From: a virus
Lineage: Duplodnaviria > Heunggongvirae > Uroviricota > Caudoviricetes
IMG/VR virus record: IMGVR_UViG_2877953467_000001
Direction: 5' to 3' (one strand)
DNA length: 3,411 nucleotides
A program made the translations under genes and the position numbers. Positions 2,604-3,411 of this stretch are shown here, piece after piece. The notes beneath the pieces were generated by a model that was not told the DNA's origin, made no database searches, and was given only the letters and a program-made list of their open reading frames with translations. Numbering within the stretch: the stretch's first letter is position 1; the number at the start of each line of letters is the position of its first letter.

Positions 2604-2828
2604 ATGCATACAGTTTCTGAAAATCAGTGCGGTAAATACGCATTACTGCTGCAACAGGCCAGAACCGAAGCACAGGCCGACGCAGCGACGCGCTTTTCTT
2701 CTCATCTTGACGCCATGATTCGCCACATCACAAAGGCGGAGTTATCCCGCGTGGAGATAGTCGAGCTGCTCAGTCAGGAGTCGGAAAAATTTCACAATAT
2801 CGGATTGTCTCGCGGGGAGGTGCTTTGA
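2604..2828 (+). CDS. Hypothetical early protein, 74 aa, in the position of P2 orf80
   Basis: ATG at 2604 preceded by GGAGA (2593-2597, 6-nt spacer); stop TGA 2826-2828 overlaps the next ATG (TGATG). Product [74 protein letters not shown]. No recognisable catalytic motif. The TTG-initiated extension from 2571 is not favoured. Confidence 0.6.
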
Positions 2829-3130
2829 TGTCCTGTTCTCGTTCAGTTGTATTACTGAATAACGCCTTAAAAATCGCCGTTATGAAAAATGGCGATTTAT
2901 CTCTTATTCAACTTGGTCTTGATAAAGAAAAACGCGAAATAACTGAGTCTGTTATCGCGATTTATCAGAACGAATTAAATCTCCTGTCTGATGTGGTCAA
3001 TTTACTTGTTAAACGCGCTGTATTTCACAAGCAAATCTCCTCCGTGGATGAACTGACGAAATTAACGACAGAAATCGCCAGCTATTGCGCTGATGAATTT
3101 AAAAAACTGAACGACAAAAGGAACTGGTAA
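2828..3130 (+). CDS. Hypothetical early protein, 100 aa, in the position of P2 orf81
   Basis: ATG at 2828 with GGAGG at 2816-2820 (7-nt spacer), overlapping the upstream stop. Stop TAA 3128-3130 overlaps the next ATG (TAATG). Product [100 protein letters not shown] looks helical and leucine-rich. No known motif recognised. Confidence 0.65.
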   Translation: MSCSRSVVLLNNALKIAVMKNGDLSLIQLGLDKEKREITESVIAIYQNELNLLSDVVNLLVKRAVFHKQISSVDELTKLTTEIASYCADEFKKLNDKRNW

Positions 3131-3342
3131 TGCCGGACAACATAGATTTTATTCAGGAACAACAGGCTGAATTACTGGAGCGCCAGATTAACGCGGCAAG
3201 GGTAAAACATTGCGGTGCTTCTGCGCTGGTTTGCGAAGAGTGTGACGCGCCAATACCTGCTGCCCGTCGTGCGGCTTATCCGTCAGCCACGCGTTGTGTT
3301 TCCTGTCAGGCAGTCTTTGAAGCAAAAAACANNNNNNNNNNN
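3130..3342 (+). CDS. TraR/DksA-family C4 zinc-finger protein (P2 orf82-like); 3' end falls in or just beyond the N-run
   Basis: ATG at 3130 with AAAGGAA at 3117-3123. The first 67 residues are MPDNIDFIQEQQAELLERQINAARVKHCGASALVCEECDAPIPAARRAAYPSATRCVSCQAVFEAKN. They contain CEEC, 17 residues, then CVSC, the CxxC-x17-CxxC pattern of DksA/TraR zinc fingers. The ORF runs into the N-run at 3332-3342, so the true stop and C-terminus cannot be read. The in-frame continuation to 3411 in the ORF track is not trustworthy. Confidence 0.7.
3332..3342. other. Run of 11 ambiguous bases (assembly gap or masked sequence)
   Basis: Literal n characters at 3332-3342. True length of the missing sequence is unknown, so reading frame across it is undefined. 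Confidence 0.95.
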
Positions 3343-3411
3343 ACAATTAGATATCAAAAAATGTCACCAATAACTGACATTGCGGTGTTTCTCCAGATGT
3401 GGCCCATCTGA

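Follow-up and report, generated by a model that had tools for sequence, protein, structure and literature searches.

What is encoded by a small gene that appears to be cut short at the end of a viral sequence record, and is that gene intact in the genome from which the record was drawn? The locus lies in a stretch of 3,411 nt (here, the window) that is identical over its whole length, Ns included, to a substring of GenBank record CP023201.1 of Escherichia coli 360/16, and it belongs to a prophage of the P2 type (Peduovirus) with its integration site at the start of pflA. The genes follow the order int-C / cox-orf78-B-orf80-orf81-orf82, as in the annotation of phage P2. On the minus strand, the window begins at the stop codon of the gene for a tyrosine integrase (331 aa, 1–996, identified with Pfam), next to the gene for a C-type immunity repressor with an HTH (103 aa, 1090–1401; Pfam and the annotation in a relative). 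The plus strand carries the early (Pe) operon, the first gene of which is a cox-type gene (1506–1862; PF10743, E 3.2e-29; annotated at 357 nt), followed by the orthologs of orf78 (56 aa, 1873–2043; annotation of P2 and of relatives), of the replication gene B (166 aa, 2040–2540; P2 annotation, and PF26815 Phage_RepB in contigs L004–L007), of orf80 (DUF2732, 2604–2828; Pfam and P2 annotation) and of orf81 (DUF5405, 2828–3130; PF17399, E 1.2e-34, and P2 annotation). A terminator-like hairpin is located 3′ of gene B (2562–2577), at the same position as the putative rho-independent terminator annotated between B and orf80 in P2, and a second hairpin with 11 pairs and a weak T tail is found inside orf81 (2871–2898). 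An earlier reading made from the letters alone (the sequence-only reading) had assigned the gene at 3130 to the early operon, and the presence of cox-orf78-B-orf80-orf81 upstream of orf82, as in P2, bears this placement out.

The gene in question starts with an ATG at 3130 that overlaps the stop codon of orf81 (TAATG), and the frame reads MPDNIDFIQEQQAELLERQINAARVKHCGASALVCEECDAPIPAARRAAYPSATRCVSCQAVFEAKN up to base 3330/3331, corresponding to the first 67 codons plus 1 nt (3130–3331, plus strand). Two CxxC pairs, C35/C38 and C56/C59, are separated by exactly 17 residues and make up a C4 zinc-finger core, CEEC-x17-CVSC (3232–3306), that was assigned by its spacing, by PF01258 and by alignment with TraR. 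The Pfam model PF01258 (zf-dskA_traR) matched residues 34–64 over positions 5–35 of the 36 profile positions with 43.5 bits (E 3e-11), compared with a gathering cut-off of 24.9 bits, and a phmmer search against PDB chains returned TraR as the best match (E 3.5e-10 for 5w1s and 6.2e-10 for 6n57), YbiI (E 1.6e-7) and DksA (E 0.14). The two TraR chains match over residues 15–71, and all four Cys of the window protein align with Cys of TraR. Given the Pfam score above the cut-off and these PDB matches, the zinc finger is not a chance resemblance, and the assignment to the TraR/DksA C4 zinc-finger family that had been made from the spacing of the cysteines is confirmed. In the tip motif near the N-terminus, D3-N-I-D6-F-I (3136–3147), both aspartates are kept and the A8 of DxxDxA is replaced by I (DNIDFI). 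A single-sequence AlphaFold model of low confidence (pLDDT 66, pTM 0.30) consists of a helix at 3–28, a non-helical Cys-rich middle part and a helix at 57–66. When this low-confidence model was compared with PDB structures using Foldseek, the top 10 of 10 matches were chains of TraR, YbiI or DksA, the first being TraR in complex with RNA polymerase (6n57_M, probability 0.99, TM 0.46); the zinc-finger fold, for which a structure prediction had been proposed as a check, is thus not absent.

Between 2800 and 3331 the window is 97.9% identical in nucleotides to P2, under the P2-annotated orf80, orf81 and orf82. Within orf82 itself, 199 of 202 nt and 65 of 67 residues are identical, leaving three nucleotide and two amino acid differences (I5V and A61S). 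This sequence comparison identifies the gene at 3130 as orthologous to orf82 of phage P2, an ordinary gene that is already known. All 202 bases are found unchanged in E. coli PE15, TK3887 and NCTC9104 and in contigs L004 and L006. The copies in PE15, L004 and L006 read as a gene of 225 nt that ends in ...EAKN-KHYRRTA-stop, encodes 74 aa and overlaps the start of orf83, and for TK3887 and NCTC9104 the annotation shows a TraR/DksA-family gene at the matching position. Contigs with the very same integrase (exact-protein match) also contain the 74-aa gene in intact form, with orf83 and gpA next to it, which the present record lacks because of the contig join described below. Of the 5,426 complete E. 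coli genomes, about 1,555 have a copy that spans 80% or more of the 2800–3411 query. In PE15 (L001 745–6335) the identical orf82 resides in a P2-type prophage by yegR with a different integrase of 337 aa and with a gpA pseudogene. As orf80–82 stand beside another integrase there, this early-gene module is common to phages with different integration modules.

The window holds about 10 residues of the C-terminal helix (57–67), and the record lacks the final seven residues, KHYRRTA, that is, the last 23 nt of orf82 including the stop codon; the lost part comprises the KHY that is conserved with TraR. The C-terminal helix had been described as impossible to assess, which proved too pessimistic, as part of it is in the window and the identical genes show how it ends. 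With 67 residues in the window and 74 aa encoded by the genes that are identical over the 202 nt, the protein belongs to the TraR size class of about 73 residues, equivalent to the C-terminal half of DksA. We assign a probability of roughly 85% to the overall reading, in which the product of the gene at 3130 is a TraR-family protein of about 74 residues from a P2-type (Peduovirus) prophage and its truncation is a feature of the deposited assembly, not of the strain.

The record departs from these relatives at a run of 11 Ns (3332–3342), a contig join that is present as the same run in CP023201.1 (L005 7655–7665), and all database matches to 2800–3411 end at 3331. The end of the gene had been given as 3342, which is the last of the 11 (not 12) Ns; the coding bases end at 3331. 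E. coli 360/16 was isolated from a neonatal calf in India and sequenced on an Illumina NextSeq, the reads were assembled with CLC and Edena and merged with CISA into 136 contigs, and these were ordered by the reference-assisted tool Ragout into a draft of 4,748,376 bp (PMC5814501). In view of this ordering, the N-run is to be read as the junction of two contigs that were paired by reference synteny, not as a measured gap. The number of 11 Ns presumably is the standard minimal spacer of Ragout; a literature search for this point returned nothing relevant.

The two flanks of the N-run come from different parts of the prophage. In E. coli E24377A, ogrK is followed after 91 nt by the 69 nt found 3′ of the Ns; this is the right end of the prophage, beside pflB, and its homology to the ogr terminator and the Int P-arm of P2 stops 1 base before the post-gap sequence. 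Where both halves are present, the two breakpoints are 27,038 nt (OZ040091.1) or 26,003 nt (strain 602354) apart, and in OZ040091.1 the interval contains 37 annotated genes, beginning with orf83 and gpA, continuing with the late genes and ending with ogrK. The candidate explanation of a small gap within the gene was rejected: in intact genes 'aaaaaaca' is followed by aacattaccgg and then agaacggcatga, but what comes next in the window is acaattag... from attR. The sequence-only reading was therefore right in that the record cuts the gene at the N-run, but what it took for a small unread patch is a Ragout join between ends that are 26–27 kb apart in intact relatives. Because of this distance, the proposed PCR across 3300–3360 would serve as a test for a deletion, not for gap closure. 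Very probably, about 26–27 kb of prophage are hidden by the join, either left out of the record or placed elsewhere in it.

The sequence right of the Ns can be divided into a phage part and a host part, since prophage-free genomes match only 3366–3411, under the annotated start of pflA. Positions 3343–3365 are the phage-derived arm of attR, which lies past ogr at the prophage's right end, as supported by its position in E24377A, by the P-arm comparison and by the lack of the arm in prophage-free genomes. Positions 3366–3411 are host DNA with the native pflA start and its upstream region on the minus strand (ATG at 3380–3378). The 13-bp att core ACCAATAACTGAC (3366–3378) is the longest exact stretch common to both prophage ends; it covers part of codon 1 through codon 5 of pflA and recurs at attL, 102 bp left of the window. 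A phage-type attR at pflA was found in 394 of the 5,426 complete E. coli genomes. At attR, the prophage cuts the native promoter and the first five codons off pflA, leaving the stub MSVIGDIF*. At attL, just left of position 1 (L005 10997–11100), PflA gains a phage-encoded leader of 20 residues, MSNLTNCNTTENTAAAGATK-SVIGRIHS..., and has 265 instead of 246 aa. As this leader-bearing pflA follows int after 31 nt in the same orientation, the phage C-int transcript may extend into it in lysogens.

The record acquired its truncated gene as follows: one short-read contig ended inside orf82, and the next contig to be placed starts in the right end of the prophage. A true deletion junction is unique sequence across which short reads assemble, so the join by Ns at 3332–3342 points to a repeat-induced break. 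A second P2-type prophage in 360/16 could have made de Bruijn contigs break at 3331 and 3343, and contig breaks at the edges of P2-shared sequence would be the pattern expected of a genome with repeated P2-like DNA. The left contig extends for 21 nt beyond the last base at which it deviates from P2 (3310), and the right contig begins 1 nt past the P2 homology (L003 4999–5001). A point against an assembly artefact is that the left breakpoint (3331) falls at no obvious module boundary.

We infer that orf82 is intact in strain 360/16, and we regard it as very probable that the truncation is an artefact of the assembly. According to the competing explanation, the truncation is real and 360/16 contains a 3.4-kb remnant reaching from int to codon 67 of orf82, with the rest of the prophage lost as far as the attR arm, perhaps through an IS element that is repeated in the genome and so broke the assembly. 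The record indeed sets both ends side by side, and ACAA occurs at both breakpoints (aaaaACAAcatt and tcatACAAttag) and could act as microhomology. Remnants are also known from the same site: at pflB-pflA, E24377A retains only the decayed right half of a P2-type prophage (L003 1–4910; truncated tape measure, a tail gene, gpD and ogrK), which adjoins the IS21-like element ISEc62, so that real remnants do exist there, and K-12-type genomes retain ogrK-type relics. However, no Ns should have been needed to assemble a simple deletion junction, the join stems from a reference-guided orderer and not from read evidence, and the right breakpoint matches the end of the P2-shared sequence to 1 nt, as for a repeat-induced break. 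Moreover, the two parts are not neighbours in any of the 5,426 complete E. coli genomes (best coverage of the query 87%), and the pattern GTCTTTGAAGCAAAAAACA-N{0,30}-ACAATTAGATATCAAAAAATG, i.e., a junction with 0–30 nt between the parts, had no match among 185,579 species-representative genomes. A real deletion is therefore unlikely, and the same low likelihood applies to its consequence for the gene, namely, that orf82 would be a pseudogene or would encode a C-terminally altered protein without the KHY tail. Slightly more doubtful still is the further-reaching scenario of a domesticated stub in 360/16, in which immunity and early genes were kept and an altered RNA polymerase modulator without KHY lies by the displaced pflA promoter.

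The join also creates an open reading frame of its own. Mechanical translation from 3130 reads through the 11 Ns to 3411 and yields 93 aa, the last 22 residues of which correspond to the att arm and to the antisense of the pflA start region. One might take this for a real zinc-finger protein of greater length whose C-terminal extension, TIRYQKMSPITDIAVFLQMWPI, is novel, as the frame is open across the 11 Ns and its stop codon coincides exactly with the last base of the window. Yet the frame survives the join only by the accident that 1 nt and 11 Ns add up to 12, the extension includes host DNA that is found in 5,425 of 5,426 E. coli genomes, and the relatives that were read (PE15, L004 and L006) stop after KHYRRTA, which leaves this interpretation with a practically negligible likelihood. 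The coincidence between the stop codon and the last base of the window suggests instead that the boundary of the window was probably set by a gene caller building across the Ns.

The biological weight of the locus is small, given about 1,550 near-identical copies among the 5,426 genomes and a P2 ortholog that has already been characterised biochemically. Its practical value is a warning: a GenBank record that looks finished is a reference-ordered short-read draft, in which a run of 11 Ns very probably conceals a whole prophage and yields both a falsely 'truncated' gene and a chimeric 93-aa ORF. In automated scans, short N-runs in Ragout-type pseudo-molecules are best treated as contig ends. 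Other short N-runs in CP023201.1 may likewise hide repeats, prophages or IS elements, and the same applies to the sister record CP023200.

What the protein does can be approached through its P2 ortholog. Alignment with P2 Orf82 and lambda Orf73 and promoter reporter assays had been suggested for the gene at 3130; the comparison was well chosen and such function tests are already published for P2 Orf82, since Gopalkrishnan et al. (mBio 2022) purified this protein and, with it, four further TraR homologs including lambda Orf73 (PMC9239242). P2 Orf82 competes with DksA for E. coli RNA polymerase approximately as well as TraR does, with half-maximal competition at 0.65–1 µM, and it inhibits rrnB P1 with an IC50 of 250 nM without ppGpp, while RNA-1 is not inhibited (PMC9239242). 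Its lower potency was ascribed by the authors partly to the missing A8 of DxxDxA; induced P2 Orf82 fully complements a dksA deletion in minimal medium (PMC9239242). Expression of the protein is driven by Pe, as is that of the replication genes, and a halt of cell growth upon its over-expression has been reported (PMC9239242). In TraR–RNA polymerase structures, the N-terminal helix enters the secondary channel and brings D3 and D6 close to the active site; the zinc globule, at the rim of the channel, touches β′ Si3, and the C-terminal helix touches β Si1 (PMC9239242). The promoters that are inhibited are those with short-lived open complexes, i.e., rRNA and ribosomal protein promoters (PMC9239242).

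On the basis of the 65 of 67 identical residues, the variant in the window (I5, A61) would be expected to behave like P2 Orf82. Following the homology to TraR, its N-terminal helix with D3 and D6 would reach down the secondary channel of RNA polymerase toward the active site, the C4 zinc globule would be placed at the channel rim and the C-terminal helix on the Si1 insertion of the β lobe. Made from the early promoter Pe during lytic growth, along with the replication genes, Orf82 may shut down rRNA and ribosomal protein promoters without ppGpp and so redirect host transcription. The alternative that the product is an Ogr/Delta-like zinc-ribbon regulator that binds DNA at phage promoters, and not a secondary-channel factor, draws on the fact that P2-type phages activate their late promoters via the small C4 zinc protein Ogr. 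It also draws on the remark that certain homologs of TraR might control promoters of the phage that encodes them (PMC9239242). We consider this alternative very unlikely because the DksA/TraR model and TraR itself match near full length, including the N-terminal DxxD tip, because P2-type prophages have a separate ogr at the far end beside attR, and because P2 Orf82 binds the DksA site on RNA polymerase in vitro (PMC9239242).

The arrangement resembles most closely that of P2 Orf82 itself (NP_046793.1, 74 aa), which likewise follows orf81 with overlapping stop and start codons, contains CEEC-x17-CVSC and has the tip aspartates D3 and D6 without A8. It differs from the window protein by V5 instead of I5 and S61 instead of A61, the A61 being shared with TraR, and the last seven codons of the gene are missing from the window record. 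The phages themselves differ in the integrase, the repressor, cox and the att site, which for the phage in the window is the start of pflA. The TraR protein of the F plasmid (73 aa; 5W1S and 6N57) is in the same length class, with the N-terminal helix bearing DxxD, the C4 zinc globule and the C-terminal helix, and is the best structural match at ~29% identity; the residues IP-ARR after the first CxxC are common to both, and KHY at the C-terminus is common to TraR and the full-length relatives of the window gene. In contrast, TraR is encoded in a conjugation operon, has the full DxxDxA and is approximately 5-fold more potent on rrnB P1 than P2 Orf82 (50 vs 250 nM) (PMC9239242). More distant relatives are YbiI and DksA of E. 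coli, which have the DksA/TraR C4 finger domain in common with the window protein. DksA (151 aa), however, has an extra N-terminal region with a coiled coil and needs ppGpp, whereas the window protein is TraR-sized, and YbiI is a chromosomal paralog. Lambda Orf73, a phage TraR homolog like Orf82, inhibits rRNA and ribosomal protein promoters, slows host growth and raises the burst size. It belongs to another phage family and another operon (the pL exo-xis region), its in vitro activity exceeds that of P2 Orf82, and in vivo effects were measured for Orf73 only. Orf82 probably acts in a similar way, with lambda Orf73 as the model.
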